Below are positions 1 through 14,028 of a DNA stretch of 14,028 nucleotides, one piece after another. Under the pieces are notes generated by a model, which was not told the origin of the DNA, did not search any database, and saw nothing but the letters and a program-made list of their open reading frames with translations. The translations under genes were made by a program, and so were the position numbers. Each line of letters begins with the position of its first letter. Position 1 is the first letter of the stretch. The DNA is from a virus (Duplodnaviria > Heunggongvirae > Uroviricota > Caudoviricetes): positions 1 to 14,028 of the IMG/VR virus record IMGVR_UViG_2563366825_000022; one strand, written 5' to 3'.

Positions 1-1131
1 TCAAATGACCAGTTTTTTCCACTCTTTACCGCGTACATCGTTGTAAATATCGGTCATTTTTTGATTCGAATGACCCAGCAAAATTTGGGTATCAATTCCC
101 TGCTCCCTGAACAATCGCTCTGATAAAGATCTCTGCTCATGGAAAGAGGGTGGAGTGCCATTAGCGCGCCAGTTGTAATCCACAGAATCCCGGGCTTTTT
201 TAAATGCAACTGTCAACGTTGCTGGCTTAACCATCCCGCCGCGCTTAGCTGTCCCTTTAGCATGATGGTGGTGCAATAACCACGGACTAAGAACGCAATC
301 GCGACAGGATGACACTACATCATCCAGGGTGAGATTTAATTTATCGCAACGCAGAGCCAGAGGGATGGCAATCCGGGTTCCTGTTTTTTGCTGTTCGACA
401 TGAAGATAACCATCCCTGATATCCGAAAATTTCATTTTGCAAATATCTGAAAGGCGCTGGCCTGTCATCAGCGCTAGCAGCATACCACGCTGTAAAAAGT
501 AACCATCCTTTTCCGCTGCATTATAAATCATCATCCACTCATCAAAGGTCAGTCGTTGCCGTGATATCCGTACCTGTGGTTTTTTTGCCGATTCTGCAGG
601 GTTAAAGCCTGGCGAGACATCGCCCGTTTGCTGGGCCTCCCGGAAAACATCAATCAGTACTTTCCTGAAAATTTGTCCCATTCTGTTATGTCCTTTTGCC
701 TTGTAATCTTCCAGCACCGATACCACATCTTTTACGGTTATGGCATCTAATGGTCTGGTACCAAAACGTTCATCAAATACCCTGAGAGGGGATGCTTTCT
801 GTTTCAGTGTGTTGAGTTTGATCTCTCCGTTTTCATATCTTTCCTGTTGAATTTTTCGGTAACTATTCAGAAAAACAGAAACGGTTGATGAACCACCGGT
901 ATCACGAATAATTTTCTCCTGCAGAGTGAGCATTTGTTCCATTTGTTGCCTGGCAAGACGGCTGTTCGCTTCTGCTGCAATAGCTTCTGCCTGTTTCTGG
1001 TCAATACTGCCGAGCCCGTGATTTTTTCCTGTTATGGGATGCCTGTAACGCCAGTAAACTTTGTTATTTCTTTTGTCAAAATACGGAGATAATCCCGGAA
1101 CTTCAGTTTTATATTTTCGTGGGCGCGCCAT
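1..1131 (-). CDS. int: Phage tyrosine integrase (site-specific recombinase), 376 aa, complete
   Basis: Complete minus-strand ORF whose stop codon sits at 1-3. Length and C-terminal region (…LLGHSNQKMTDIYNDVRGKEW) fit lambda-type integrases with a catalytic Tyr near the C-terminus. Its start overlaps the excisionase ORF by 23 nt, as in int-xis modules. Confidence 0.9.
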   Translation of the reverse strand: MARPRKYKTEVPGLSPYFDKRNNKVYWRYRHPITGKNHGLGSIDQKQAEAIAAEANSRLARQQMEQMLTLQEKIIRDTGGSSTVSVFLNSYRKIQQERYENGEIKLNTLKQKASPLRVFDERFGTRPLDAITVKDVVSVLEDYKAKGHNRMGQIFRKVLIDVFREAQQTGDVSPGFNPAESAKKPQVRISRQRLTFDEWMMIYNAAEKDGYFLQRGMLLALMTGQRLSDICKMKFSDIRDGYLHVEQQKTGTRIAIPLALRCDKLNLTLDDVVSSCRDCVLSPWLLHHHHAKGTAKRGGMVKPATLTVAFKKARDSVDYNWRANGTPPSFHEQRSLSERLFREQGIDTQILLGHSNQKMTDIYNDVRGKEWKKLVI

Positions 1132-1357
1132 CTTCCAGTATCCTCTTCAAAGCAGGGGGATCTGTGGCGATCACTTCCGGCTTGTTTACCATTCCGACAA
1201 AGCGAGCTCGAGGATCCACTCGCCAGTGTCTTCCAACTTTTTTGGGGAGAGGAAATATCATTCCGGCTTTAGCGTATTTACTTAACGTGCCCGGAGTAGG
1301 GACCGGTTCACTGAATTCCTCTTTTGCCCACTCAGTGAGCAGAATAAGTCTTGCCAT
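1109..1357 (-). CDS. xis: Excisionase-like small DNA-binding protein (Xis), 82 aa
   Basis: Small basic ORF immediately upstream of int and overlapping it. The motif W..(7)..P…G.IFPLPKKVGRHWRV resembles the lambda Xis winged-helix signature. Confidence 0.65.
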   Translation of the reverse strand: MARLILLTEWAKEEFSEPVPTPGTLSKYAKAGMIFPLPKKVGRHWRVDPRARFVGMVNKPEVIATDPPALKRILEDGAPTKI

Positions 1358-1421
1358 GAGCGTTGTTCGCTAATCATGGCCGCCGCCATTATAGCTTGCG
1401 GACGACGACCGGGGTTGAACA

Positions 1422-3893
1422 TTAAAAATCAGCCTGACTCGGGATCAGTTTTTGCCAGATTGCTGAAACTTGTTTTGCCTGGTGACGGGCATCGTCCAGC
1501 GCATTGTGGGGTACGCCTTCGAATGGAATAGCCATTCTGACATCAAAGCCAATGGCATTACCCAGTTCAACGATTGTGCGTACATCGCGATCGTTGTAGT
1601 AAAGCCACGGGTAGGGGATCCCCTGCCGTTCATATGAACGGCGTAAAATTACGTTGTCGAAGTTGGCTCCATTTCCCCATATCTGAACAAAAAATTCACC
1701 GGAGTTTTCGTCGATAAATTCCCGCAATTGTAACAGTGCATCATCTAACGGGATTTCATCGGTCATAATGGCAGACTGCGCTTCACGTGATTGCTTCAGC
1801 CACCTTTTAATGACGTCACGATCAATGACTCCGCCAGCAGTTTCCAGATCGATAGTCTTACTAAATTCCGGTCCCATACCTCCGGTTTGCGGATCGAAAA
1901 ATATTGCACCTATTGAGATAATCGGGGCATCAGGATTTTTTCCCATGGTTTCAAGGCCTATCATTAGATGGTCACACGTCCTGCTGGTGGATGTGATTTC
2001 GTGATGACCGTTCACCTTAATTGAGTGATCTGCCGTCTCGCCAGTTTCATTATCGCTATCGTGATGCTGATTGCCGCCAGCATTCTCCTTGTGTGGATGT
2101 TCAGCGCCTTCCATTTTCTCCGGATCATCTTCCTGAACTTCAACCTGATACTCTTCATCGAATGTTTCCTGGTATGTTGCGTCGCCCATCACCGCGCCAC
2201 AATCAGGGCAGTTGCCGCCGCCGGTCTGACCGCAGGCGGTGCAGACTTTTTCCACTTCCTGTTGCGCCACTGGTTCAGGCTGTTTCGTTTCTGGCTCGTT
2301 TTGTAACGCATTTGGGCTGTTTTGTTCCGCTTTTTGGTAGTTCCGTTCCGATTCATGCTGGTTCTGGTTTACAGAATCGCGGGTCTGGATCCCCTTAACC
2401 CATTTCGGATCATTCGGGGCGCTAATCCCTTCAACAAATTCACCACGTGATACTGCAAGCAGTTCATCGGCGTCAGGCTGGCTGATATTGGCTGCCTGCA
2501 TAATTTTGTTTACTTCGTCAGCGGTAACTTTTACCGGCTCTGGTTGTGCGGTCGTGTCAGATGCACCAGTATTTTGTTGTGAACCTGAGTATGTACTGTT
2601 TTTGCGGGCGAAATATTCTTCTTTCGTGATTTCAGTAGCCCCGGCAGCCAGCGCCTTATCCAGACCAGAAAGTTTGTTTGCGCGACCGTATTTTTCGCCA
2701 TCCTTGTCGGTGAAGAGGAAGTAGAACGGCCCCTCACGCTCTACAGATGGTTCGACTTCCACTTTGCATTCGGTTTTTTCGTTGTCCGGAATTGCCGTTT
2801 CCACTGCATCAGTTTCTGGTACTGGCGACGAGAGAGTATCAGTTGCGCTCTGATTTGTTCCTTCATCTTCAAACACGCCCTTTGTAGTCAGGTATTCAGT
2901 AATGTATTTGTTCAGTGCCACAGGGTCTTTGTGAATGTCGATCGGACGTTCACGGACAAGGCCAAAAATAGTCTGGCGGTCGTAGCGAAGGGCATCAGGC
3001 TGTTTGCGCATTGATGCCGAGATACGCTTCCAGTCTTCGCGGTCGTTGTCGATAACTTCATTTTTTGCCCAGCGATGGATGCTGCCGTCAATGTTTCCGG
3101 CATCCACATCACCAGGCCAGAGAGCGTAGGCCAGTTCGTCATCCAGTGTTTTCCATGTCTGCTTGTATTCGCGATGAATGGTAGCAATGACCGGGCTGAT
3201 TTTTCCTGTTGAATTTTCAGTGTGCTGTTGATTGGTTCTGGCGCGGGCGAGATCAACAACAGACGTGTATTTTCCGGTTTCCTTGCGTTCACCTTCGCGA
3301 CGTTTTTTCCAGATGCGCATCTCTGCCTGAATTTCGGGCCATTTGGCACCAGGCTTACATTTATGCTTAACCCACCCGATGGCATGCAGCTTAAGCTCCG
3401 GATACATGGCGTTAACTTCTGGCATTTTCATCAACGCTTCAACGATATGTCCGTCGAATGTTGCCATGTCTTCCTGCAACAATTCCTGTGCGCTAATAAC
3501 CATATCAACGGTGATGTTTTCACATGTGTCGAACTTAACCATGACAGCGTTCTGTACTTCAGGGGCCAGCTTGTCAAAAGTGACGTTCATCGGATCTGAT
3601 TCAGTCTCAACCGGGACAAAGGAAGCAGACTCCTCATCCCAGCGGTTTTCCTGCATATATTCAGCATCCCAGGAATCGAGGGCAGGGCGGGGTATGCCGG
3701 GTTTATCCTCACAGACAATAAATTTATAAGCGCAGTCCTGAGCTGCAGGGAATTGCTCCAGAAATTGCCAATGAAATTTTGCGCGTGCGCGACGCTCATC
3801 ACCGGCTTCAATGGCAGTGGCCACCGCAACAGCGCTATCTTCTTTTATGGCCTGTTCATCAGGAATAGCAGCGCAAATAAAGACCTTACTCAT
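1422..3893 (-). CDS. RecE/YdfE-family prophage exonuclease, 823 aa, with a central zinc ribbon and a C-terminal DnaQ-like (DEDDh) 3'-5' exonuclease domain
   Basis: Long ORF with SD-like GAGGT upstream of ATG 3893. N-terminus MSKVFICAAIPDE… matches what I recall of YdfE/RecE N-terminal regions. It has an acidic linker and CTACGQTGGGNCPDCG (CxxC…CxxC). C-terminus carries Exo II-like GNGANFDNVIL and Exo III-like HNALDDARH motifs. Confidence 0.8.
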   Translation of the reverse strand: MSKVFICAAIPDEQAIKEDSAVAVATAIEAGDERRARAKFHWQFLEQFPAAQDCAYKFIVCEDKPGIPRPALDSWDAEYMQENRWDEESASFVPVETESDPMNVTFDKLAPEVQNAVMVKFDTCENITVDMVISAQELLQEDMATFDGHIVEALMKMPEVNAMYPELKLHAIGWVKHKCKPGAKWPEIQAEMRIWKKRREGERKETGKYTSVVDLARARTNQQHTENSTGKISPVIATIHREYKQTWKTLDDELAYALWPGDVDAGNIDGSIHRWAKNEVIDNDREDWKRISASMRKQPDALRYDRQTIFGLVRERPIDIHKDPVALNKYITEYLTTKGVFEDEGTNQSATDTLSSPVPETDAVETAIPDNEKTECKVEVEPSVEREGPFYFLFTDKDGEKYGRANKLSGLDKALAAGATEITKEEYFARKNSTYSGSQQNTGASDTTAQPEPVKVTADEVNKIMQAANISQPDADELLAVSRGEFVEGISAPNDPKWVKGIQTRDSVNQNQHESERNYQKAEQNSPNALQNEPETKQPEPVAQQEVEKVCTACGQTGGGNCPDCGAVMGDATYQETFDEEYQVEVQEDDPEKMEGAEHPHKENAGGNQHHDSDNETGETADHSIKVNGHHEITSTSRTCDHLMIGLETMGKNPDAPIISIGAIFFDPQTGGMGPEFSKTIDLETAGGVIDRDVIKRWLKQSREAQSAIMTDEIPLDDALLQLREFIDENSGEFFVQIWGNGANFDNVILRRSYERQGIPYPWLYYNDRDVRTIVELGNAIGFDVRMAIPFEGVPHNALDDARHQAKQVSAIWQKLIPSQADF

Positions 3894-3988
3894 TTTGTTT
3901 TAACCTCATTACAGATTTCAGGGTGAACGAATCCCTGCCATTGCTGGCATTTTTAATCCGTTGGTATGGTGTTAATATGGCTGGAGGG

Positions 3989-4177
3989 TTATCCAGCCGG
4001 TGTTTCGTTATTCAGGTACAGCGATACTTTTTTTACCGGGAGGCATTCACCAGAAATTTTTTGCTCGTCTCTTGCCTGGAGGCAGGATTCTTTACTGGCA
4101 TAAATTCCGGTAATCACATTCTGTGATTCACCCGTTATAAGAAAAACCGTCATCATCAGTGCAAATGCTGAAGTCAT
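3989..4177 (-). CDS. ydfD: Small membrane protein, YdfD-like (lysis-associated protein of the dicB operon), 62 aa
   Basis: Hydrophobic N-terminus (MTSAFALMMTVFLITG) and two Cys. Start is translationally coupled to the upstream ORF by an ATGA overlap at 4174-4177. Position directly downstream of dicB and size match Qin ydfD; the symbol is assigned by synteny only. Confidence 0.55.
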   Translation of the reverse strand: MTSAFALMMTVFLITGESQNVITGIYASKESCLQARDEQKISGECLPVKKVSLYLNNETPAG

Positions 4178-4362
4178 TGACGTTCTCCGAAAATACCAAG
4201 TTCAAGAAGAGCAATTCGGGAAAGTATGGAATTATCATTGAGCAGATAAGGCTCATATTTCCTCATATTAATGGCATCTTCAGTAAACTCCCGGTTACTG
4301 AGCAGAACACCAATATCAAAACAACCTTCAGACGTATTAACGTTTGGTAATAACGTTTCCAT
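4174..4362 (-). CDS. dicB: Cell-division inhibitor DicB, 62 aa (the ORF track extends to a GTG at 4467, which has no SD)
   Basis: Internal ATG at 4362..4360 is preceded by GAGGA with a 7-nt spacer. Product METLLPNVNTSEGCF… is 62 aa, matching DicB as I recall it. It lies immediately downstream of DicF, as in Qin. Confidence 0.7.
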   Translation of the reverse strand: METLLPNVNTSEGCFDIGVLLSNREFTEDAINMRKYEPYLLNDNSILSRIALLELGIFGERQ

Positions 4363-4536
4363 TATCGCGTCCTCAACAATGAATTTTGTGATGCAGTGCC
4401 TGGTGCCTCCAGGTGACGTTAACCAGTTAACAATTAACGCCGGATACAGAGAATCCACCCATAACACTGTTTTTGGTTTTAACTGTTCCGCGTGCGCTTA
4501 GCCGCATTCACCGCATCACAAAATTCACTTTAAAAA

Positions 4537-4589
4537 GGGCGGCAGAGCAGTCACGGAGTAAAACTGATACCGCCAAACGTCACCAGAAA
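4537..4589 (-). ncRNA. dicF: DicF small regulatory RNA (Hfq-dependent sRNA targeting ftsZ and other mRNAs), with an intrinsic terminator tail
   Basis: Minus-strand sequence UUUCUGGUGACGUUUGGCGGUAUCAGUUUUACUCCGUGACUGCUCUGCCGCCC followed by UUUUU matches the DicF sequence from memory. It ends in a GC-rich hairpin plus U-run and lies between the ydfC-like ORF and dicB. Confidence 0.8.
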
Positions 4590-4930
4590 ATTGATAACAG
4601 AGGGCGTTGCAGCGGGGTTGTCACTTAAGCGTATGGTCAACCTGACAACCCGGTGTCCTCAACGGGGGAAGAAATAACCCCGCCATACTTACCGCCGCAC
4701 CATTTCGCGGGTTGCCACAACCGGAAGCGCACGGTCGACGAAAATTTAACGACAGGCTATCTATGAACCAGCTACCTCGCCGTGCGCTTTCGCGTTATGG
4801 TCTGACTTTTCAGGGAAATATCCTTTCAGTAAACTGTCAGTGCCGGATGCTCACCCGCGTCCGGCGCACGCACTCCACCTCACCCGTGGAGAACTACTTA
4901 ATTACCAACCTTAGCTTCGTTGGTTAGCTA

Positions 4931-5149
4931 TTAACGCGGGTATGTAATCATTCTGGCAATGCTTAATGCCGCTGCTTTTTCCAGCCTGGTGATATCCTGC
5001 TCCAGAGCGGACAGATTTTCAGCCTGCTTAGCCCTGGCTTCATTGGCCCATTTCAAATCCTGCGCTGCATTAATTTTCTGGCGCATCCACTCATAAAGTT
5101 CATTATCGGTATAGTCTGGAGCGATGATGACGGGTTCTCGTTTCTGCAT
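4931..5149 (-). CDS. ydfC: Small hypothetical protein, YdfC-like by position and size, 72 aa
   Basis: Complete ORF in the minus-strand early-left operon, between the YdfB-like ORF and DicF. Assigned by synteny and length only. Confidence 0.5.
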   Translation of the reverse strand: MQKREPVIIAPDYTDNELYEWMRQKINAAQDLKWANEARAKQAENLSALEQDITRLEKAAALSIARMITYPR

Positions 5150-5178
5150 ACTGATTCCTCGCGGTGCTGTTTCGCTTA

Positions 5179-5307
5179 TCAGCCGTTAGATTTTGCCGAA
5201 CTGAAAAGCACCTGTTTAAATTCGTTGAAGCTGTGAGCTTCTTCGCCTTCGGCAAGGCCTTCGAAGTATTCTTCGTAAGCCTTTTCCATGATTGTGTCAA
5301 AATCCAT
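5179..5307 (-). CDS. ydfB: Small acidic protein, YdfB-like by position and size, 42 aa (below the ORF-track cutoff)
   Basis: Hand-translated minus-strand ORF MDFDTIMEKAYEEYFEGLAEGEEAHSFNEFKQVLFSSAKSNG. Its ATG at 5307..5305 sits 1 nt after the stop of the upstream ORF, with AGGTGA upstream. Stop TGA at 5181..5179. Confidence 0.45.
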   Translation of the reverse strand: MDFDTIMEKAYEEYFEGLAEGEEAHSFNEFKQVLFSSAKSNG

Positions 5308-5308
5308 A

Positions 5309-5464
5309 TCACTCACCTGAGTTTCTTTCCAGCCAGCGACGGGCACCATTTTCGGTTTTAAACGTTTTGCTTTTGGTATACGTCATCGCGGTGAACGTAC
5401 CGTCCTGGTTGGGGAACACGCCACATACCAGAGATTCGCTGTTGCCAAGATCGATAGTATCCAT
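5309..5464 (-). CDS. ydfA: Small hypothetical protein, YdfA-like, 51 aa from the internal ATG (the ORF track's alternative start at 5545 gives 78 aa)
   Basis: First ORF downstream of the leftward early promoter. ATG at 5464 has GAGG with a 5-nt spacer; ATG at 5545 has GAGG with a 9-nt spacer. The 51-aa form matches YdfA in size. Confidence 0.5.
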   Translation of the reverse strand: MDTIDLGNSESLVCGVFPNQDGTFTAMTYTKSKTFKTENGARRWLERNSGE

Positions 5465-5643
5465 GCTGACCTCATTTCCCCTTAACGCCGGGGTAGCGGA
5501 ACAAAAACCTGCTGCATAGTTATTAAAGTTGAACCCTGCCGTCATGTTCTTACGCCTCGGGCTGGCTACTTAACCCCTGACCACTGCCTGGTAACTCGAA
5601 GTATTGCCCTGCATTCTGTGGGGTGGGGAGAGGGAATGAATGA

Positions 5644-5691
5644 AGTTTAGAAAAATGAACTTTTCAGGTCAATGTTTTTTTATCAAAACAT
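5644..5691 (-). promoter_or_regulatory. Putative leftward early promoter (pL-like) with overlapping operator palindrome (oL-like)
   Basis: On the minus strand, TTGACC, a 17-nt spacer, then TAAACT. Perfect inverted repeat AATGTTTT-N5-AAAACATT at 5671-5691 overlaps the -35 and shares the ATGTTTT half-site with the palindrome at the cI start. Confidence 0.4.
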
Positions 5692-5756
5692 TTTAAGCAG
5701 GCAGCTGTTAAGCCATCACCACGATGGCATACAGTTAATCAAATAGATGAGGTCGG

Positions 5757-6395
5757 TTAAATATCTTGTTGAATTTTAAAGCATACGCCCAATATGCAAG
5801 ATAGATCATCCAGCATAATTGAAGGGTAGCGAGGATTCGTGGGGACTAAAAGAATATCCGGCCCTTCTATCTCCAGTTTACGAATGACAGGTGTTGTGGT
5901 CCCTTTGGGTAAGGCAAGGACAATATTTCCTGGTTGTACGGTTCGATCGGGATCAACAAAAACTGTTGAACCATTTGGGATGGAAACTCCCCCACCAGAT
6001 GTTGACATACTGTCACTCTCTAGAACAACTGCAAAGGTATTGGCCGGGATTTCTCCGACAAGCTGCACACAAGAGGTTATTGAGGAATTTTTCATATAAT
6101 CACTCCAGCTTGCTGCCTGCTGAAGTGATAGTAGCGGAACCGTTTTTATCAGCGGTAAAGATAGATCAAGCGAATCACCTGTATTTAACTCTCCTCCATT
6201 AAGAAGCCAATTTTCGTTTACTTTCAATATTTTTGCCAGTGAACTTATGTAACGCGAGGACGGCGCTCCTCCACCGTTCATCCATTGACTTACGGAGCCT
6301 TTTGATGCGCCAGTGGCATTGACAAGGTCTTTGCCTTTCAGGTTTAGCGCATGCATACGTTGGGTTATGCGTTCAGATATTGTTTGCTTGCTCAT
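5757..6395 (-). CDS. CI-type prophage repressor, 212 aa: N-terminal HTH plus C-terminal S24 (LexA-like) autopeptidase domain
   Basis: N-terminal HTH-like region (…GASKGSVSQWMNGG…) and C-terminal S24-like segment with a Ser (ESDSM) and downstream Lys (IRKLE). Divergent from the cro-like gene. No SD before the ATG, consistent with a leaderless transcript. Confidence 0.85.
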   Translation of the reverse strand: MSKQTISERITQRMHALNLKGKDLVNATGASKGSVSQWMNGGGAPSSRYISSLAKILKVNENWLLNGGELNTGDSLDLSLPLIKTVPLLSLQQAASWSDYMKNSSITSCVQLVGEIPANTFAVVLESDSMSTSGGGVSIPNGSTVFVDPDRTVQPGNIVLALPKGTTTPVIRKLEIEGPDILLVPTNPRYPSIMLDDLSCILGVCFKIQQDI

Positions 6396-6458
6396 GTTTT
6401 GATTTTAAAACACAGATGGTTTTGTTTCTTGACTTTCTTTGGTTTTGATTATTAAACT
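6396..6458. promoter_or_regulatory. Immunity-region operator/promoter cluster (oR-like sites with divergent pR-like and pRM-like promoters)
   Basis: Palindrome GTTTT-N6-AAAAC at 6396-6411 abuts the cI ATG, with a related repeat GTTTTGATTATTAAAC at 6442-6457. Plus-strand TTGACT at 6430-6435 with TATTAA/ATTAAA downstream. Minus-strand TAAAAT lies 6 nt upstream of the cI ATG. Confidence 0.4.
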
Positions 6459-6486
6459 TTTGGCGTTCAGTTTTATGGAGCGACTC

Positions 6487-6729
6487 ATGAAAAAATCAGA
6501 AGTATTAGGCTATTTTGGCGGAGTTGTTAAAACAGCCGCAGCTCTAGGAACGTCAAAAACCACAGTCAGCATGTGGGGGGAAGAGGTTCCGTGGAAATGG
6601 GCGTTGCTAATTCAGGCAGTCACTGCCGGGGCGCTCAAATATGAGTTACACATACCGACGGTTGTCATTCCCGGTTCTGATCATAATCCGCCTTCTAACC
6701 AAGGGGGGATTCATGAAAATCAAGCATGA
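6487..6729 (+). CDS. Cro/YdaS-like small HTH regulator, 80 aa
   Basis: GGAG sits 6 nt upstream of ATG 6487. HTH-like segment VVKTAAALGTSKTTVSMW. Divergent from the repressor across the operator region. The ORF track's TTG start at 6439 has no SD. Confidence 0.75.
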   Translation: MKKSEVLGYFGGVVKTAAALGTSKTTVSMWGEEVPWKWALLIQAVTAGALKYELHIPTVVIPGSDHNPPSNQGGIHENQA

Positions 6730-7138
6730 ACACATCCGCATGGCGATGAATGCCTGGGCGCGTCCTGATGGCGAAAAAGTTCCGGCAGCTGGAATAACCC
6801 AGGCTTATTTTGAGTTGGGTATGACGTTTCCTGAACTGTACGACGACAGCCATCCGGAAGCCCTGGCTCGCAATACCCAGAAAATTTTCCGCTGGATAGA
6901 GAAAGACACCCCTGATGCAGTTGAAAAAATTCAGGCGTTGTTACCAGCTATCGAAAAAGCAATGCCACCTCTGCTGGTGGCCCGAATGCGCAGTCATAGC
7001 TCAGCCTATTTTCGGGAACTAGTGGAGACGCGGGAGCGACTGGTGAGAGACGCTGATGATTTTGTCGCAGTGGCAATCGCCGGTTTCAATCAGATGAACC
7101 GTGGTGGCCCGGCAGGAAATGCTGTGGCAGTGCATTGA
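6713..7138 (+). CDS. YdaT-like protein (proposed CII-type regulator, formerly annotated as a toxin), 141 aa
   Basis: SD AAGGGGGG precedes ATG 6713, which overlaps the cro-like stop by 17 nt. N-terminus MKIKHEHI… matches what I recall of YdaT. Sits in the cro-cII-O positional order. Confidence 0.6.
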   Translation: MKIKHEHIRMAMNAWARPDGEKVPAAGITQAYFELGMTFPELYDDSHPEALARNTQKIFRWIEKDTPDAVEKIQALLPAIEKAMPPLLVARMRSHSSAYFRELVETRERLVRDADDFVAVAIAGFNQMNRGGPAGNAVAVH

Positions 7139-7208
7139 GTGATAATAGCCATATCGAATCGCTTCCGGCAACTCGTGAGTAAAAGATTCGGTATCAGAAG
7201 AGGTGAGT

Positions 7209-8291
7209 ATGGCTAACGCCTGGCTCAGATTATGGCATGACATGCCAAATGACCCTAAGTGGCGAACAATTGCCAGAGTGTCAGGGCAGCCAATTGCAAC
7301 AGTGATGGCAGTGTATATCCACCTCCTGGTGAGCGCGTCACGAAATGTCACGCGAGGTCACATTGATGTCACGACAGAAGATTTGGCAAGTGCGCTCGAC
7401 GTGACAGAAGAGGTAATTGATTCAATTTTGCAGACGATGCAGGGGCGGGTACTTGATGGTGATTTAATCACTGGATGGGAAAAACGCCAGGTGCTTAAAG
7501 AGGACAACGGCAATATTTCGCAAACCGCAAAATCTCCTGCAGAGCGCAAGAGGGCGCAGCGAGAGAGGGAAAGAAAGCGGGAACAAAATGGCGATTGTCA
7601 CGGCGCGTCACGAAATGTCACGCACATGTCACGACGAGTCACGACAGATAAAGATACAGATAAAGATACAGATAAAGATACAGATCAAGAAGATCAAAAC
7701 ACTATGGTCCATGGCGTAAAAAACGCCACGAACCAGGCAGGGGATGTTCAGACCGTCAATCTTGGTCAGCCAGCAGGCACGACACCGGAAGCCGATTCAG
7801 CGTATGCGCTGAAAGCCGATTCGGGCGCTGTGCAGCAGGTGATGACCGCAAGGCCGGAGCAATCACACCAACTGCAGCAGCCCGAAGCCGATTCCGCCAT
7901 TCAGCGGGAAGCCGATCGGGTAGTCCCGGAAAACACCGGGCAGTCTGTGGGACGAGTGGATTATCCGGATGTGTTCGAACAGGTCTGGCGGGAGTACCCG
8001 TTGCGTGCCGGAGCAAACCCGAAGAAATCCGCTTTCAGTGCCTGGAAGGCCAGATTACGCGAGGGGGTGCCACCAGAAGCCATGCTGGATGGCGTGAGGC
8101 GTTACGCAAGATACTTGGCGGCTACCGGGAAAACGGGAACGGAATTTGTTCAGCGAGCGACGACGTTTTTTGGACCGGACCGGAATTTTGAGAACCCCTG
8201 GTTGCTCCCGGTAAGCGGCACGAACAACCAGCGTTGTGTGAATCATATTTCTGAACCGGATAACGAAATTCCGCCGGGCTTCAGGGGGTAA
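7209..8291 (+). CDS. Replication initiator, O-like/YdaU-type (DUF1376-like N-terminus), 360 aa, with an internal origin-like region
   Basis: GAGGTG precedes ATG 7209 (the ORF track starts at GTG 7203). N-terminal WLRLWHDMPNDPKWRTIA motif resembles the family I recall as DUF1376. Iteron clusters and a DKDT-repeat linker lie inside the gene, as lambda ori lies inside O. Confidence 0.7.
   Translation: MANAWLRLWHDMPNDPKWRTIARVSGQPIATVMAVYIHLLVSASRNVTRGHIDVTTEDLASALDVTEEVIDSILQTMQGRVLDGDLITGWEKRQVLKEDNGNISQTAKSPAERKRAQRERERKREQNGDCHGASRNVTHMSRRVTTDKDTDKDTDKDTDQEDQNTMVHGVKNATNQAGDVQTVNLGQPAGTTPEADSAYALKADSGAVQQVMTARPEQSHQLQQPEADSAIQREADRVVPENTGQSVGRVDYPDVFEQVWREYPLRAGANPKKSAFSAWKARLREGVPPEAMLDGVRRYARYLAATGKTGTEFVQRATTFFGPDRNFENPWLLPVSGTNNQRCVNHISEPDNEIPPGFRG
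7337..7373. repeat. Iteron-like cluster 1: four GTCACG/GTCACA hexamers at 10-11 bp phasing
   Basis: Hexamers at 7337, 7347, 7357 and 7368. The surrounding 21-nt string GCGCGTCACGAAATGTCACGC is repeated exactly at 7603-7623. Confidence 0.6.
7597..7643. repeat. Iteron-like cluster 2: five GTCACG hexamers at 10-11 bp phasing, adjacent to an AT-rich tandem repeat (putative ori core)
   Basis: Hexamers at 7597, 7607, 7617, 7628 and 7638, followed directly by an AT-rich repeat. The layout mirrors lambda ori (iterons plus AT-rich region inside the initiator gene). Confidence 0.6.
7647..7682. repeat. 12-bp perfect tandem repeat (GATAAAGATACA) x3, encoding a DKDT-repeat linker
   Basis: Three exact copies followed by a degenerate copy (GATCAAGAAGATCAAAAC). 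AT-rich, immediately 3' of iteron cluster 2. Confidence 0.8.
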
Positions 8292-8331
8292 GTGTTAATT
8301 TCTGGTCATGAGGTAATTTTCAGGAGGGCTT

Positions 8332-8757
8332 GTGGCAAAAGTTTTTACACAAGAAGAGCGGGAAAAAATTAAAGGGCAGGTTGTTGAACTCGTACGCCAG
8401 AGTGGGCGCGAGACGTTACGACAACTGGAAGCTAAAACTGGGGCAACAAGATATCTGATGAGCGTTCTTGCCAGAGAACTGGTAGCCAGTGGCGATGTAT
8501 ACAACTCCGGCTGCGGATTATTCCCGTCTGAACAGGCGCGTAAGGACTGGCAAAATGCCCGCAAAAAACTCTCAAGGGCAAAGGTGAAGAAACCTGCAGT
8601 GGTTGATCCGGACCTTATCTGGTCGTTACCAGACGGCGAAATACGCCGCTACGACAGGCGTCTGAATATAATCTGTCGCGAGTGCCGGAAGAGCGAAGCT
8701 ATGCAGCGTGTACTGGCATTTTATCAAGGAAATGTTAGGTATTTTAGACGTTACTAG
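8332..8757 (+). CDS. Hypothetical basic protein, 141 aa, in the position normally held by the helicase loader (P/DnaC-like)
   Basis: AGGAGG lies 4 nt upstream of GTG 8332. Lys/Arg-rich with a possible HTH-like stretch (ATRYLMSVLARELVASG). I recognise no family from the sequence. Confidence 0.55.
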   Translation: MAKVFTQEEREKIKGQVVELVRQSGRETLRQLEAKTGATRYLMSVLARELVASGDVYNSGCGLFPSEQARKDWQNARKKLSRAKVKKPAVVDPDLIWSLPDGEIRRYDRRLNIICRECRKSEAMQRVLAFYQGNVRYFRRY

Positions 8758-8910
8758 ATTAAAGAGCATTAGTTCAGATGTGAATTGACATTTTCATGGC
8801 GCAGGGTAGAGCCAGCGTGGTTGTCCGCTTTGCGTCAAAACCAGATATTACCAGATTTAGACATATATTCCCGATAGCCCTGCTCTGATGCTACACTCTG
8901 TGCTATTTTC

Positions 8911-9597
8911 ATGACCCCAATAAAAATATTTATGACTATTGCTGATTTCAAACGGCCTAAATTGGAGCTCCCAAACGGGGCAAACAAACTACTACTGCAC
9001 TCTTGCTGTGCTCCATGTTCCGGTGAAGTGATGGAGGCGCTTCAGGCCTCGGGAATCGACTACACCATCTTTTTCTACAACCCGAACATTCATCCTCAGA
9101 AAGAGTATTTAATTCGTAAGGATGAAAATATTCGCTTTGCTGAACAACACGGCGTGCCGTTTATCGATGCTGATTACGACACCGACAACTGGTTTGAACG
9201 TGCCAAAGGAATGGAATGGGAGCCTGAGAGGGGGATCCGTTGTACCATGTGTTTTGACATGCGTTTTGAGCGGACAGCGTTGTACGCTGCTGAAAATGGT
9301 TTCAGTGTGATCAGCAGTTCACTGGGCATTTCGCGCTGGAAAAATATGCAGCAGGTTAACGAGTGTGGGCGGCGAGCTGTTGCGCATTATCCGGGTATGG
9401 TATACTGGGATTATAACTGGCGCAAGCAGGGCGGCTCGTCCCGTATGATTGAAATCAGCAAGCGCGAAAAATTCTATCAGCAGGAATATTGTGGCTGTGT
9501 GTATTCTCTGCGCGATACCAATCTACACCGCAAATCTCAGGGACGCCCTCTTATCAAAATTGGCCAACTCCACTACGGAAAAGAAGAGAAGGAGTGA
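8911..9597 (+). CDS. queH: QueH-like protein (DUF208; epoxyqueuosine reductase family, Fe-S), 228 aa
   Basis: N-terminal [11 protein letters not shown] motif followed by FFYNPNIHP, with further Cys pairs ([14 protein letters not shown]), fits my recollection of DUF208/QueH. No clear SD; alternative ATG at 8932. Preceded by a 150-bp intergenic region. Confidence 0.6.
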
Positions 9598-9834
9598 TTT
9601 TATGGATCACCTTTCTGATTGATTTCATATTGGCGAGGTGACGTGAGTTAAGTAGAATTGCTGCGGGTGCTTGAGGCTATCTGCCTCAGGCATGAACACC
9701 AAAAGGCAGATAGAGAAAAGCCCCAGTTAACATTACGCGTCCTGCAAGACGCTTAACATTAATCTGAGGCTCAATCCATGCTGAACACATGTAGGTTAGC
9801 CTCTTACGTGCCGAAAGGCAAGGAGAAGCAGGCT

Positions 9835-9990
9835 ATGAAGCAGCAAAAGGCGATGTTAATCGCCCTGATCGTCATCTGTTTAACCGTCATAGTGACGGCA
9901 CTGGTAACGAGGAAAGACCTCTGCGAGGTACGAATCCGAACCGGCCAGACGGAGGTCGCTGTCTTCACAGCTTACGAACCTGAGGAGTAA
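9835..9990 (+). CDS. hokD: Hok/Gef-family type I toxin (HokD/RelF-like), 51 aa
   Basis: AAGGAGAAG precedes ATG 9835. Product MKQQKAMLIALIVICLTVIVTALVTRKDLCEVRIRTGQTEVAVFTAYEPEE has the Hok transmembrane helix and conserved C-terminal region. The ORF track's in-frame extension from ATG 9778 may be a mok-like leader frame. Confidence 0.85.
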   Translation: MKQQKAMLIALIVICLTVIVTALVTRKDLCEVRIRTGQTEVAVFTAYEPEE

Positions 9991-10058
9991 GAGACCAGGC
10001 GGGGGAGAAATCCCTCGCCACCTCTGATGTGTCAGGCATCCTCAACGCACCCGCACTT

Positions 10059-10086
10059 AACCCGCTTCGGCGGGTTTTGTTTTTTC
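10059..10086 (+). terminator. Intrinsic terminator downstream of hok
   Basis: Hairpin CCCGC-TTCG-GCGGG followed by TTTTGTTTTTT. Confidence 0.65.
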
Positions 10087-10157
10087 CTGGCATTCTGGTT
10101 TACAATTCGCACGCCAGCCTGAACAACTGGCACCTGCTGCGCCAGCAGAGACAACCG

Positions 10158-10436
10158 ATGGCGCACGATACCAAATTATACAATTCTGATAATTCTGCCG
10201 TCTTTGCCAGCAGGTGCGGGCGGCGTTCTCATGCATTCAAATCTGACAGGTTACAGCACGCCCCATGCACTGAAGAACAGGCCGAATGGCTGATTCAGTG
10301 TTACCGCAGGCGTGGATACGAGGTTAAGAAAGCCCTCAGCCTCGATTATCGTCACTGGATAATCTACGTCAGGCTGCCGTACTCCGAGCGCCCACCGCGT
10401 CCGTCCCGCACATTCCAGCAACGCATCTGGAGGTAA
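10158..10436 (+). CDS. Rem-like small protein, 92 aa
   Basis: Internal ATG of ORF 10029..10436, chosen because the hok terminator lies inside the upstream part of that ORF. Sits between hok and the DUF968 gene, as rem does in Qin. Weak SD. Confidence 0.45.
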   Translation: MAHDTKLYNSDNSAVFASRCGRRSHAFKSDRLQHAPCTEEQAEWLIQCYRRRGYEVKKALSLDYRHWIIYVRLPYSERPPRPSRTFQQRIWR

Positions 10437-10437
10437 C

Positions 10438-11496
10438 GTGCGGGTATTACTTCGACCTGTTCTGGTACCGGAACTCGGGCTGGTGATCGTTAAGCCGGGC
10501 CGTGAATCCATGCCGGTATTCCACAATACCCGGGTACTGGTGGAGCCGGAACCGAAAAGCATGCGTAATCTGCCGTCCGGGGGCGTTCCTGCCGTTCGCC
10601 AGCCGCTGGCGGAGGATAAATCATTACTGCCATTTTTCAGCGACGAACGAGTGATTCGTGCTGCTGGTGGCGCTGGCGCATTGTCTGACTGGTTACTGCG
10701 CCATGTTAAATCCTGCCAGTGGCCACACGGCTATTATCATCACAGCGAAACCGTCATTCACCGTTATGGTACCGGCGCAATGGTGTTGTGCTGGCACTGC
10801 GACAACCAGCTGCGTGACCAGACATCCGAATCACTCGAGCAACTTGCTCATCAAAACCTGTCAGCATGGATGATTGACGTCATCGGTCACGCAATAAGCG
10901 GTACGCAGGAGCGTGAATTATCTCTGGCTGAATTATCCTGGTGGGCGGTCTGCAATCAGGTAGCGGACGCACTACCGGAGGCTGTATTACGCCGCTCACT
11001 GGGATTACCGGCGGAGAAAATCCGCTCGCTTTATCGCGAGAGCGACATCATACCGGGAGAGCAGACAGCCACCAGCATACTGAAGCAGCGCACAAAAAAT
11101 ATTGCGCTACCACTTCACGCCCACCAGCAACAAATCCGGCCACAGGAAAAGACGGTGGTCAGCATTGCCGTTGATCCGGAGTCACCGGCTCAGTATCTCC
11201 AGCGCCAGAAACCACAACGGGAAGAGATGCCTGTATACACGCGCTGGGTAAAAACGCAGAAATGCATGACGTGCGGTAATCAGGCAGATGATCCGCATCA
11301 CATCATTGGTCATGGACTGGGAGGGATGGGAACAAAGGCTGACGATTTGTTTGTTATTCCGTTGTGCCGTAAATGCCATAACAAACTACATGCCGGAGTA
11401 AAAGATTTTGAAGAAAAACACGGCAGTCAGCTGTTGTTGCTGATTCGTTTTTTAATGCACGCGAGAAATTCGGGTGTTCTGAAGTGGAAAGCATAA
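10438..11496 (+). CDS. DUF968/YdfU-like protein with a C-terminal HNH-type zinc-finger nuclease motif, 352 aa
   Basis: GGAGG precedes GTG 10438. C-terminus CMTCGNQADDPHHIIGHG…CRKCHNKLH has the CxxC…HH…CxxCH…H pattern of HNH nucleases. Synteny with rusA and Q. Confidence 0.7.
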   Translation: MRVLLRPVLVPELGLVIVKPGRESMPVFHNTRVLVEPEPKSMRNLPSGGVPAVRQPLAEDKSLLPFFSDERVIRAAGGAGALSDWLLRHVKSCQWPHGYYHHSETVIHRYGTGAMVLCWHCDNQLRDQTSESLEQLAHQNLSAWMIDVIGHAISGTQERELSLAELSWWAVCNQVADALPEAVLRRSLGLPAEKIRSLYRESDIIPGEQTATSILKQRTKNIALPLHAHQQQIRPQEKTVVSIAVDPESPAQYLQRQKPQREEMPVYTRWVKTQKCMTCGNQADDPHHIIGHGLGGMGTKADDLFVIPLCRKCHNKLHAGVKDFEEKHGSQLLLLIRFLMHARNSGVLKWKA

Positions 11497-11877
11497 ATGA
11501 CCGAACGCATAGAATTTGTTTTGCCTTACCCGCCGACGGTGAACACTTACTGGCGACGCCGTGGCAGCACATATTTTATCTCGGAGGAGGGAAAGCGTTA
11601 TCGCCGGGCTGTGGCGCTTATTGTTCGCCAGCAGCGGCTGAAATTAAGCCTGTCCGGAAGGCTGGTAATCAGGATTATTGCAGAGCCACCGGATAAGCGT
11701 CGTCGTGACCTGGACAATATTCTGAAAGCACCGCTGGATGCGCTGACGCACGCGGGGTTGTTAATGGACGATGAGCAGTTTGATGAAATCAATATTGTAC
11801 GTGGCCAGCCAGTATCTGGTGGACGTCTGGGGGTGAAGATTTACCCCATAATGCTTGAAGGGCAGGTCAAAAAATGA
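11497..11877 (+). CDS. rusA: Holliday-junction resolvase RusA, 126 aa
   Basis: Motifs LPYPPTVNTYWRRRG, EGKRYR and PDKRRRDLDNILKAPLDALTHAG match the RusA family. Start abuts the upstream stop; the stop overlaps the Q-like start (ATGA). Confidence 0.85.
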   Translation: MTERIEFVLPYPPTVNTYWRRRGSTYFISEEGKRYRRAVALIVRQQRLKLSLSGRLVIRIIAEPPDKRRRDLDNILKAPLDALTHAGLLMDDEQFDEINIVRGQPVSGGRLGVKIYPIMLEGQVKK

Positions 11878-12695
11878 AACTGGAAGATTTACCGAAATAC
11901 TACTCCCCAAAATCCCCCGGCCTGACTGATGCATCGGCCTCAACGTCGAAAGATGCGCTGAGTATCACTGATGTGATGGCCGCGCAGGGCATGACACAGA
12001 ATCGGGCTGAGATGGGGTTTTCTGCGTTCCTTGGGAAAATGGGCATTAGTATGAATGACAGAGAGCGGGCAACAGAATTGCTGACAGAATATGCACTCAG
12101 TCGGTGTGATCGCGTGGCGGCGTTAAGAAAACTCCCGGCAGAAATAAAACCGGCAGTGATGCGTATTATGGCTTCGTATGCGTTTGAAGATTATGCCCGT
12201 AGCGCGGCGAGCAAAAAACAGTGCCCCTGCTGTCACGGAAAAAAATTTATTGAAAGCGAGGTTTTTACAAACAAGATCCAGTATCCGGATGGTAAGCCGC
12301 CAGTGTGGGCAAAGTGCACAAAAGGCGTGTATCCGTCTTACTGGGAGGAATGGAAAAAAGTCAGGGAGGTGGTAAAAGTTGCCTGTCCGGAGTGTGGAGG
12401 GAAGGGAGAGGTATCCACTGCCTGTAAAGATTGTCGTGGGCGCGGTGTTGCCATTCATCGTGAAGAGTCGGAAAAACAGGGTGTGCCGGTTTTCAGAAAC
12501 TGTCAGCGTTGTGGTGGGCGTGGCTATGAAAGATTACCTTCAACGGAGGCATTTAATGCCATATGTAATGTAACCGATGCCATATCTCTTGATACATGGA
12601 AAAAAACAGTTAAACGTTTTTACGATACGCTGGTGGTGCAGTTTGATATTGAAGAAGCATGGGCAGAACAACAACTGAAAAAGGTGACCAGATAG
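11874..12695 (+). CDS. Late-gene antiterminator Q-like protein (QuuQ-type) with four DnaJ-like CxxCxGxG zinc-finger repeats, 273 aa
   Basis: Positioned immediately upstream of a promoter plus intrinsic terminator. Repeats CPCCHGKKF, CPECGGKGE, CKDCRGRGV and CQRCGGRGY. N-terminus MKLEDLPKYYSPKSP resembles what I recall of QuuQ. Confidence 0.6.
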   Translation: MKLEDLPKYYSPKSPGLTDASASTSKDALSITDVMAAQGMTQNRAEMGFSAFLGKMGISMNDRERATELLTEYALSRCDRVAALRKLPAEIKPAVMRIMASYAFEDYARSAASKKQCPCCHGKKFIESEVFTNKIQYPDGKPPVWAKCTKGVYPSYWEEWKKVREVVKVACPECGGKGEVSTACKDCRGRGVAIHREESEKQGVPVFRNCQRCGGRGYERLPSTEAFNAICNVTDAISLDTWKKTVKRFYDTLVVQFDIEEAWAEQQLKKVTR

Positions 12696-12700
12696 CTTTG

Positions 12701-12728
12701 TTGATTTTTCCCGAATCTGTGGTAAATT
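12701..12728 (+). promoter_or_regulatory. Putative late promoter (pR'-like) with extended -10
   Basis: TTGATT, a 16-nt spacer, then TGgTAAATT, 6 nt after the Q-like stop and about 50 nt upstream of an intrinsic terminator. Confidence 0.4.
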
Positions 12729-12776
12729 TGCCCTAACGATGGGCGTTTTATGCCTGACGTTAGAAGATTTTTTACA

Positions 12777-12800
12777 CCCCGCCGCCTGGCGGGTTTTTTA
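12777..12800 (+). terminator. Intrinsic terminator (tR'-like) downstream of the putative late promoter
   Basis: Hairpin CCCGCC-GCCT-GGCGGG followed by TTTTTTA. Confidence 0.65.
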
Positions 12801-12921
12801 TGACTGAAATCGCGTCAGTACAGTAAACGCGCTGGTGGCGGTGAATACCTGTCTTTCAGCTTGCTGGCTTTTTCGACAAGAGTTATTGGTGTGTCACGTT
12901 AACCGGAAAAGGGAAAAAGAC

Positions 12922-13119
12922 ATGCTGAAACAGCAGGATATGACCGAAACCGCCAGAGTGGTGTTTAATGAATTAAGTGCCACCGAACCGGCGACAGTCG
13001 GGGAGATTGCGCAGAATACTTACCTTTCACGTGAACGCTGCCAGTTAATACTGACCCAGCTTGTTATGGCGGGGCTGGCAGACTATCAGTTCGGTTGTTA
13101 CAGACGCCTTCAGTCCTGA
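12922..13119 (+). CDS. Small hypothetical protein, possibly winged-helix DNA-binding, 65 aa
   Basis: Internal ATG of ORF 12835..13119, whose GTG start has no SD. Segment TVGEIAQNTYLSRERCQLILTQLVMAGL looks like an HTH/wHTH. Weak SD; the stop lies inside a terminator hairpin. Confidence 0.4.
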   Translation: MLKQQDMTETARVVFNELSATEPATVGEIAQNTYLSRERCQLILTQLVMAGLADYQFGCYRRLQS

Positions 13120-13131
13120 AGGCTTTTTTAT
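13105..13131 (+). terminator. Intrinsic terminator overlapping the stop of the small ORF
   Basis: Hairpin GCCTTCAG-TC-CTGAAGGC followed by TTTTTTATTTG. Confidence 0.55.
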
Positions 13132-13269
13132 TTGTGGTAAATGGGCGACTGGTGGGTGTTAGGGGCACTCACCAGCCATCTGCTCATGCGTCCGGATCAC
13201 AAGCAAACCTCAGGCCCACTGCTTTGCGCAAAAGCAGAATGAGCCTATCAGAGACAGGCTTAATGATCC

Positions 13270-14028
13270 ATGCTTAGTACTGTAAAAATATCCAGTTGTG
13301 AGTTAATCAACGCCGACTGCCTGGAATTTATCCGGTCGTTACCCGAAAATTCTGTTGACCTGATAGTCACGGACCCGCCGTACTTTAAAGTGAAGCCTGA
13401 GGGCTGGGATAACCAGTGGAAGGGCGACGATGATTACCTGAAGTGGCTGGACCAGTGTCTTGCGCAGTTCTGGCGGGTGCTGAAACCTGCCGGAAGTCTT
13501 TACCTGTTCTGTGGCCATCGCCTGGCGTCTGACATTGAAATCATGATGCGTGAACGCTTCAATGTGCTGAACCATATTATCTGGGCGAAGCCGTCCGGAC
13601 GCTGGAACGGGTGCAACAAGGAAAGCCTGAGGGCATATTTCCCCGCCACAGAGCGCATTCTGTTCGCGGAACATTATCAGGGGCCGTATCGCCCGAAAGA
13701 TGCCGGGTATGAGGCGAAGGGCAGGGCACTGAAACAGCATGTGATGGCCCCGCTGATTTCTTACTTTCGTGATGCGCGTGCTGCCCTGGGGATAACGGCA
13801 AAACAGATTGCTGATGCCACAGGAAAGAAAAACATGGTGTCGCACTGGTTCAGTGCCAGCCAGTGGCAGCTACCGGACGAAAGCGATTATCTGAAATTAC
13901 AGGCGCTGTTTGCCCGGGTGGCAGAAGATAAGCATCAGCGCGGAGAACTGGAAAAGCCACATCACCAACTGGTCAGCACATACAGTGAACTGAACCGGCA
14001 GTATACGGAACTGCAGAGTGAATATAAG
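13270..14028 (+). CDS. DNA amino-methyltransferase (beta-class N6-adenine or N4-cytosine, DPPY motif), 3'-truncated by the window end
   Basis: Hand-translated open frame from ATG 13270 to the window end (253 codons, no stop). It is absent from the ORF track because it has no stop. N-terminus …CLEFIRSLPENSVDLIVTDPPYF… then VLKPAGSLYLF. An in-frame TGA lies just upstream of the ATG. Confidence 0.8.
   Translation, partial: MLSTVKISSCELINADCLEFIRSLPENSVDLIVTDPPYFKVKPEGWDNQWKGDDDYLKWLDQCLAQFWRVLKPAGSLYLFCGHRLASDIEIMMRERFNVLNHIIWAKPSGRWNGCNKESLRAYFPATERILFAEHYQGPYRPKDAGYEAKGRALKQHVMAPLISYFRDARAALGITAKQIADATGKKNMVSHWFSASQWQLPDESDYLKLQALFARVAEDKHQRGELEKPHHQLVSTYSELNRQYTELQSEYK

Follow-up and report, generated by a model that had tools for sequence, protein, structure and literature searches.

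Queuosine-pathway cargo in Qin-like lambdoid prophages of Escherichia coli: an intact queH gene with a probable role in B12-independent tRNA modification

The 14,028-nt stretch of viral DNA analyzed here (positions 1 to 14,028 of IMG/VR record IMGVR_UViG_2563366825_000022; referred to below as the window) is the early region of a lambdoid prophage, and it carries queH, a gene of the epoxyqueuosine reductase family, directly upstream of a hok/sok toxin–antitoxin locus. The gene encodes a full-length QueH family member with all of the family-invariant residues and the QueH fold, it is intact and under strong purifying selection, and in Escherichia coli it is not a core gene but accessory cargo tied to one variable prophage slot. 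It probably specifies a functional QueH and forms a single-gene cargo of the early-right region in Qin-like lambdoid prophages; the enzyme would make a step of queuosine (Q) formation on host tRNA independent of cobalamin (B12).

Identity, integrity and distribution of prophage queH

A preliminary description of this DNA, made from its letters alone, had assigned the gene product to DUF208/QueH on the basis of an N-terminal HSCCAPCS motif and the cysteine pattern, and the searches performed here bore out both points. The protein matched Pfam PF02677 (QueH; DUF208, IPR003828) with 221.5 bits against a curated cutoff of 23.5 (E = 1.1e-65), covering positions 1–174 of the 175-position profile. 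A phmmer search of the PDB sequences returned only Thermotoga maritima QueH and its mutants, the best match being 7lc5_A (E = 7.8e-22; query residues 27–203 against chain residues 4–178), and identity to T. maritima QueH was 31%. An AlphaFold2 model, made for a 221-amino acid (aa) form of the protein from 35 homologues, had a predicted local distance difference test score (pLDDT) of 81.7 and a predicted template modeling score (pTM) of 0.82. When this model was compared with the PDB using Foldseek, the top five matches were all T. maritima QueH (target-normalised TM score 0.86; root-mean-square deviation 2.2 Å over ~181 columns), and the matches after these were generic adenine-nucleotide alpha-hydrolase folds (E ~1e-4). 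The Prokaryotic Genome Annotation Pipeline (PGAP) names the coding sequence (WP_000150294.1) “epoxyqueuosine reductase QueH”, and the exact protein belongs to a 2308-member cluster named QueH. No NCBIfam match was obtained with the window protein, a silence that is uninformative because chromosomal QueH proteins are likewise unmatched.

The candidate metal-ligand residues were all retained (Table 1; residue numbers refer to the 228-aa open reading frame (ORF) unless stated otherwise). In an alignment of the window protein with the crystallised T. maritima QueH and nine chromosomal proteobacterial QueH proteins, His30 and Cys32, 33, 111, 114, 194 and 196 were invariant, and the H, C, C, A and P of HSCCAPCS are identical in the T. 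maritima protein. Conservation was then counted over about 120 diverse representatives of 50% clusters of QueH. The Arg and the two Cys of RCTMC occurred in 142/143, 137/141 and 134/138 of these, and the Cys, Gly and Cys of YCGC in 85/86, 86/86 and 86/86, respectively. Position 36 was Cys in 115/121 and Asp in 4, T. maritima (Asp13) being among those 4; since Cys is the family majority at this position, the difference between Cys36 and Asp13 is no defect. Thus, all seven cysteines (Cys32, 33, 36, 111, 114, 194 and 196), each at least 95% conserved in the representatives, are kept, and the window protein equals the consensus at every near-invariant column examined. The cysteines of the CCAP[C/D], RCxxC and YCGC motifs presumably bind a [4Fe-4S] cluster and an adjacent iron. 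The PDB also holds C9S and D13N mutants of T. maritima QueH, at positions equivalent to HSCCAPCS, which indicates that the depositors regard those positions as functionally important. A basic C-terminal tail of ~25 residues (9517–9594; residues 203–228) extends past the end of the alignment with the T. maritima chain. Proteobacterial QueH proteins conserve this tail, in which R, R, I, G and Y did not vary over 35 sequences, and it may be a tRNA-binding extension.

Comparison of two prophage allele groups over the 221-codon frame gave a dS of about 0.3 and a dN/dS of about 0.05, with a spread of 0.04–0.06 at that dS, and dN/dS was 0.04–0.10 in all informative allele pairs, values that reflect strong purifying selection.

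The distribution of queH was surveyed in 5426 complete E. coli genomes. The queH region was present in 1032 of them (19%), nearly always as a single chromosomal copy, in contrast to queG, the K-12 gene for the B12-dependent isoenzyme, which was found in 5426/5426; the gene is therefore prophage cargo and not part of the host core, as the preliminary description had supposed. At least 80% of the query was covered in 984 of the 1032 genomes, and a few copies were truncated (e.g. H25, with 72% of the query). A query of 1.66 kb reaching from DUF977 through queH to hok was at least 80% covered in 933 genomes. The flanks alone were found at 16193 places in 4826 genomes, far above the queH count, indicating that most prophages of this type lack queH. 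In such prophages the slot contained hypothetical genes (H63) or a DUF551 gene (H64), or DUF977 abutted hok (H65), and in K-12 Qin relB–relE lies directly before hokD, in agreement with the earlier placement of queH at the relBE site of that prophage. The same slot was common to prophages with different repressors and replication genes, namely those of EC2, REL606 (Qin), STEC299 and ECamp083 and the isolated phage HannyBb. An intact queH is present in REL606, from which the long-term evolution experiment was started, at 8116–8781 of its Qin locus; this Qin is a defective prophage with a frameshifted integrase gene and insertion sequence (IS) insertions, and queH is still intact.

In IMG/VR, at least 191 viral contigs carried a relative, and the 80 examined encode the identical protein, so that they add no diversity. 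DUF977 was upstream of queH in 79 of these 80 contigs, with a 174-nt gap in 77; hok followed queH directly in 57, and the O-like gene of the window was present in only 14. A C5-cytosine DNA methyltransferase gene (FCGAGG, PPCQGFS and ENV motifs) took the place of hok in 21 contigs, and no partner gene consistently linked to queH was found among the 80. The methyltransferase-bearing contigs retain the 5′ part of the hok/sok leader. In ECamp083, a hypothetical gene and a KwaB-like anti-phage pair lie between queH and hok (4476–6115 of its locus). The queH–hok interval is an insertion hotspot. HannyBb was the one isolated phage in the GenBank collection with queH; the other tblastn matches in that collection were unannotated metagenomic fragments or oversized, probably bacterial records, and were not used.

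The annotation of phage copies was at variance with that by PGAP. In HannyBb, queH (6095–6781 of its locus) is annotated “hypothetical protein”. PHROG 3217, which contains the window protein, is labelled “unknown function”; its profile begins at residue 41 and so omits the CCAPC motif, apparently as a result of gene calls truncated at the N-terminus. The QueH identity given by PGAP is missing from resources directed at phage annotation.

Table 1. Features of the queH slot and its flanks (window coordinates)
Feature	Position	Strand	Remarks
DUF977 gene, left flank of slot	8332..8757	+	Pfam PF06163, 100.6 bits; context, outside the queH module
Junction sequence	8758..8815	+	Particular to the allele group with DUF977 directly before queH
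Leader moving with queH	8816..8931	+	~115 nt; homology of two diverged prophage allele groups begins here
Extended -10-like element TGCTACACT (TGnTAnnnT)	8889..8897	+	Begins 43 nt before ATG 8932; candidate native queH promoter
In-frame upstream ATG and 6 codons	8911..8931	+	Probably 5′ untranslated leader, not coding
queH, most probable frame	8932..9597	+	221 aa plus stop; predicted cobalamin-independent epoxyqueuosine reductase
HSCCAPCS motif	8998..9021	+	Residues 30–37; His30, Cys32, Cys33, Cys36 (221-aa numbering: His23, Cys25, Cys26, Cys29)
RCTMC motif	9238..9252	+	Residues 110–114; Arg110, Cys111, Cys114; invariant with T. maritima QueH
YCGC motif	9487..9498	+	Residues 193–196; Tyr193, Cys194, Gly195, Cys196; invariant with T. 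maritima QueH
hok/sok (hokD-type) type I toxin–antitoxin, right flank	9665..9990	+	Rfam RF01794 sok, 120.5 bits; context

Origin, start codon and leader of queH

Beyond the Escherichia/Shigella prophage cluster, the nearest relatives of the window protein were those of Scandinavium (92% identity), Kluyvera (91%) and Enterobacter (88–90%), followed by Pectobacteriaceae, Erwiniaceae, Morganellaceae and others (~80–87%). Among 80 species-representative loci, DUF977 and hok were neighbours of queH only in Escherichia albertii. Ordinary metabolic and regulatory genes flank queH in Scandinavium, Enterobacter and Kluyvera; in Providencia the gene adjoins tmcA, and in Erwinia it is located between the small RNA gene glmY (Rfam, 125.7 bits; 5631–5793 of its locus) and glrK, an interval in which E. 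coli K-12 presumably has no gene. Considering that the neighbours of the closest relatives are not phage genes, we infer that queH moved from an enterobacterial chromosome into a phage. The GC content of queH (0.48, versus 0.49–0.53 in its neighbours) bears no foreign mark. The long spacer upstream of the Erwinia gene contains GlmY, an RNA with no relation to queH. The QueH subfamily is unusually conserved: the phage copy shares 75–80% aa identity with QueH of Sphingomonas, Stenotrophomonas, Neisseriaceae and Pseudomonas, which implies that constraint is very strong or that horizontal transfer is frequent. A match labelled Bacillus subtilis (77%) looks like contamination or transfer.

The longest ORF of the region (8911..9597, + strand) encodes 228 aa, and the DUF977 gene ends at 8757, 153 bp upstream of its ATG. 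The 228-aa protein and 150-bp spacer of the preliminary description hold for this ORF; however, the most likely start codon is the second ATG, at 8932, which shortens the protein to 221 aa and lengthens the spacer to 174 bp. This choice follows from three observations. Between the allele groups, 8911–8931 has 5 differences in 21 nt, and each of the 4 codons affected is altered nonsynonymously; chromosomal homologues lack this extension and begin at the second ATG or further in; and PGAP calls a 666-nt coding sequence from the second ATG.

The leader was analyzed in an alignment of six prophage loci. A megablast match to REL606 and HannyBb started at query position 59, and the divergence of the leader (~11 in 95 nt) was lower than the synonymous divergence of queH (dS about 0.3). 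Instead of the 8758–8815 junction, REL606, STEC299 and HannyBb have a truncated methyltransferase remnant (7829–8014, 3420–3605 and 5856–6062 of their own loci, respectively), and the homology of the window with that allele group begins at the 3′ end of the remnant, at ~8816. These alignments hint that queH entered beside, or replaced part of, a methyltransferase gene.

Within the leader, the extended -10-like element TGCTACACT was invariant in 6/6 aligned prophage alleles, and the identical 9-mer was present upstream of the Erwinia chromosomal queH at a similar distance. TGnTAnnnT started at -42 to -49 in 17 of 76 usable chromosomal relatives against a background of 1.35% per equivalent window, with the reservation that these relatives are kin, so that the nominal p-value of the motif overstates their independence. 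The form common to the chromosomal relatives was TGCTACA(C/A)T at about -43, and the window copy, also at -43, coincides with the mode among them. Conservation of the motif position across genera supports its identification as a candidate native promoter, from which transcription would start near 8904 and give a leader of ~27 nt. As to other signals, no intrinsic terminator was found between 8300 and 10058, and the only one was at 10059–10076, after hok; accordingly, nothing predicted upstream of queH would block read-through from the early-right operon. An Rfam search of the leader gave no match to a riboswitch (B12, preQ1) or other known RNA at E ≤ 5, and folding of the leader compared with shuffles gave no significant structure (z = +0.87). 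A promoter-like site on the minus strand (8951–8923) was put down to chance, since 2 sites were found and 2.1 were expected.

The suggestion that queH is an independently expressed moron is thus strengthened by an extended -10-like element common to its chromosomal homologues and weakened by the absence of a consensus + strand promoter and of a terminator on either side of the gene. As a whole, this information makes autonomous transcription of queH plausible.

Proposed role of QueH and alternative readings

E. coli does not synthesize B12 de novo. QueG and QueH perform the same final step of Q synthesis, the conversion of epoxyqueuosine (oQ34) to Q34 (PMC5372724, from which the full queuosine pathway of E. 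coli was taken); the QueG step is cobalamin dependent (PMC4646009), and wild-type E. coli in M9 accumulates oQ, since this medium lacks B12 (PMC7026641). We propose that the prophage QueH would reduce oQ34 to Q34 in the Asp, Asn, His and Tyr tRNAs of the host, with oQ supplied by the host's own Tgt and QueA. Given a host that makes no B12 and builds up oQ when the medium contains none, the prophage copy would remove the B12 dependence of the last Q-synthesis step and so amount to a lysogenic conversion that acts on tRNA modification. The gene would have been captured from an enterobacterial chromosome together with ~45 nt of native upstream sequence, including the extended -10 promoter. This promoter would provide low-level expression in the lysogen independently of the phage early promoter, and during lytic growth read-through from the early-right operon, which meets no upstream terminator, would be added.

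Several points weigh against this proposal. A scan for consensus sigma-70 promoters found none on the + strand of the spacer, and the candidate -10 element has only a poor -35. No Shine–Dalgarno-like purine run precedes ATG 8911 or ATG 8932, as the preliminary description had remarked, and translation of queH may consequently be weak. The roles of individual cysteines, as ligands of the cluster or of the single iron, are assigned from conservation and not from a published description of the structure. Moreover, the gut usually offers B12, so that QueG would be enough there, and a fitness benefit of Q-tRNA over oQ-tRNA is conjecture.

A possible but rather unlikely alternative is that QueH serves the phage itself, being made only by early-right read-through after induction and tuning the Q/oQ state of host tRNA for lytic translation. 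The absence of any terminator between queH and the upstream cro, cII-like, O-like and DUF977 genes, the lack of a consensus promoter and the common orientation of queH and the early-right operon would all suit such a use, as would the retention of queH by the isolated phage HannyBb. However, the extended -10-like element, at the same distance as in the chromosomal copies, suggests autonomous transcription, and defective, non-inducible prophages such as REL606 Qin keep an intact queH under purifying selection, which points to an advantage for the lysogen. The lytic cycle would also be short relative to tRNA turnover.

It is much less probable that queH is a defence or counter-defence gene acting through the anticodon modification state of Q-tRNA, so as to change the sensitivity to anticodon nucleases or hinder superinfecting phages. 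The slot is a hotspot for toxin–antitoxin and defence genes, including relBE in K-12, hok/sok, the KwaB-like pair of ECamp083 and the C5-methyltransferase of 21/80 contigs, but neither QueH nor its neighbours had a PADLOC match at E ≤ 0.01, the sequence is that of an ordinary, highly conserved housekeeping-type QueH, and a consistently linked partner gene is lacking. Little credence can likewise be given to the related ideas of a conflict gene that fixes the wobble base of the four tRNAs as Q, and thereby alters susceptibility to anticodon nucleases or superinfection, or of an epoxy-7-deazaguanine substrate other than tRNA.

That queH has no function in E. coli, being a neutral passenger or a gene in decay, also appears very improbable. 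Redundancy with the core queG gene, the missing Shine–Dalgarno sequence and the few truncated copies (such as H25) might be taken in this sense, but a dN/dS of about 0.05 over a dS of about 0.3, the intact catalytic-site candidates and the coverage of at least 80% of the query in 984/1032 genomes speak against decay.

Of the two functions offered in the preliminary description, modification of host tRNA is the one favored here. The other, a role in 7-deazaguanine modification of phage DNA or some other action on DNA, is scarcely credible: phages do use queuosine-pathway enzymes on DNA (PMC6884629), but a DpdA/TGT-like transglycosylase and preQ0 genes are required in the known systems, QueA, QueG and QueH were all missing from the viruses analyzed by Hutinet et al. 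(PMC6884629), and the window protein is 80–92% identical to housekeeping chromosomal QueH, with no sign of drift toward a new substrate. The preliminary description had noted no such genes in the window, and the ORF list and Pfam searches confirmed that tgt/dpdA and preQ0 synthesis genes are absent from it; in the complete prophage of EC2, which PGAP annotates from the integrase through to the tail fibres, tgt/dpdA, folE and queC/D/E were missing as well. A whole prophage without transglycosylase and precursor genes makes a DNA-modification role unlikely.

The QueH family, its reaction and its structure are already established, and more than 1000 genomes already carry the PGAP name QueH for this gene. 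The present case is one of a known enzyme in an under-appreciated vehicle, the phage carriage of which has gone largely unremarked, and the advance is incremental. No description of E. coli prophage queH, or of its consequence for B12-independent Q formation, was found in the literature searched, which did not include the primary QueH papers, so that priority is not firm. Prophage queH does correct the impression, left by the survey of phage 7-deazaguanine genes, that late queuosine-specific genes are absent from viruses. The strains that carry it include ST131-type uropathogens, some O157:H7 strains and E. coli B REL606. If the enzyme is active, completion of Q in E. coli would be a strain-dependent trait hidden by work on K-12: B12 would not be needed for Q formation in ~19% of sequenced strains, whereas K-12 stops at epoxyqueuosine when the medium lacks B12, and E. 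coli B and K-12 laboratory strains should differ in their oQ/Q ratio in B12-free minimal media. This would bear on how studies of tRNA modification and translation are read across laboratory strains, and it would provide an example of a temperate phage converting the tRNA-modification capacity of its host.

Prophage setting and comparison with known systems

The window contains genes for an integrase, an excisionase, an 823-aa exonuclease, the DicF small RNA, an S24-peptidase repressor, and P22-Cro-like, YdaT-like and O-like proteins. After the O-like gene the order is DUF977, queH and hok, followed by DUF968/HNH, RusA and antiterminator Q. The preliminary description had placed queH between the replication genes and hok; hok is indeed its downstream neighbour, but the gene immediately upstream is DUF977, which lies downstream of the O-like gene and is not a recognised replication gene. 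The Rfam sok match spans 9665–9840, and the Hok ORF is in the ORF list of the window (hokD in PGAP). queH has the orientation of the early-right operon, with the cro, cII-like, O-like and DUF977 genes upstream. A full-length DicF gene was found at 4537–4588 on the minus strand (Rfam RF00039, 76.7 bits), and dicB is annotated in the corresponding early-left region of the related EC2 and REL606 prophages; DicF and dicB together mark the prophage as Qin/Rac-like. In the 823-aa “exonuclease” (1422–3893, minus strand), an Rv2179c-like 3′–5′ exoribonuclease domain is confined to the C-terminus (residues 641–812), and the N-terminal 640 residues are acidic, of low complexity and without any Pfam match. 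The antiterminator Q homologue (11874–12695, + strand) has a DnaJ-type CXXCXGXG zinc-finger segment ahead of its Antiterm domain, with a zinc-finger match of 29.8 bits that is under the cutoff of 32.7.

Among characterized proteins, T. maritima QueH (PDB 7lc5, 7lc7 and 9deu) resembles the window protein in its full-length domain, six common cysteines, His30 and fold; it differs in having CCAPD where the window protein has CCAPC, the family majority, and the basic C-terminal tail of the latter extends beyond the aligned chain. Chromosomal enterobacterial QueH proteins are 80–92% identical to it, but the window gene resides in a lambdoid prophage slot and not among housekeeping genes, in a host that already has QueG. 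QueG itself shares both its reaction and its tRNA substrates with QueH (PMC5372724, PMC4646009), but belongs to a non-homologous, B12-requiring family and is core (5426/5426), whereas queH is present in 19% of genomes.

With respect to its vehicle, queH is comparable to the relBE–hokD arrangement of K-12 Qin and to the morons and lysogenic-conversion cargo of the nin/early-right region of lambdoid phages, with which it shares a position directly upstream of hokD, variable occupancy of the slot and single-gene form; it also has a candidate promoter of its own. It is unlike the lambdoid morons in that the cargo is a tRNA-modification enzyme and not a toxin, defence or virulence gene, that it has no terminator of its own and that its base composition is the same as that of its flanks. 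The phage 7-deazaguanine clusters (DpdA with FolE, QueD, QueE and QueC, as in phage 9g) likewise represent borrowed queuosine-pathway genes; however, those clusters comprise the early preQ0-forming steps and a DNA transglycosylase, and only the last, tRNA-specific step is found here. Finally, MetE and MetH, and the QueG and QueH of Staphylococcus aureus, are pairs of enzymes for one reaction with different cofactor needs. The coexistence of QueG and QueH in S. aureus (PMC13443448), and that of B12-dependent and B12-independent enzymes in general (PMC6461909), has been seen as insurance against cofactor scarcity. The E. coli pair differs from these in that a prophage brings in the B12-independent partner, which varies from strain to strain.

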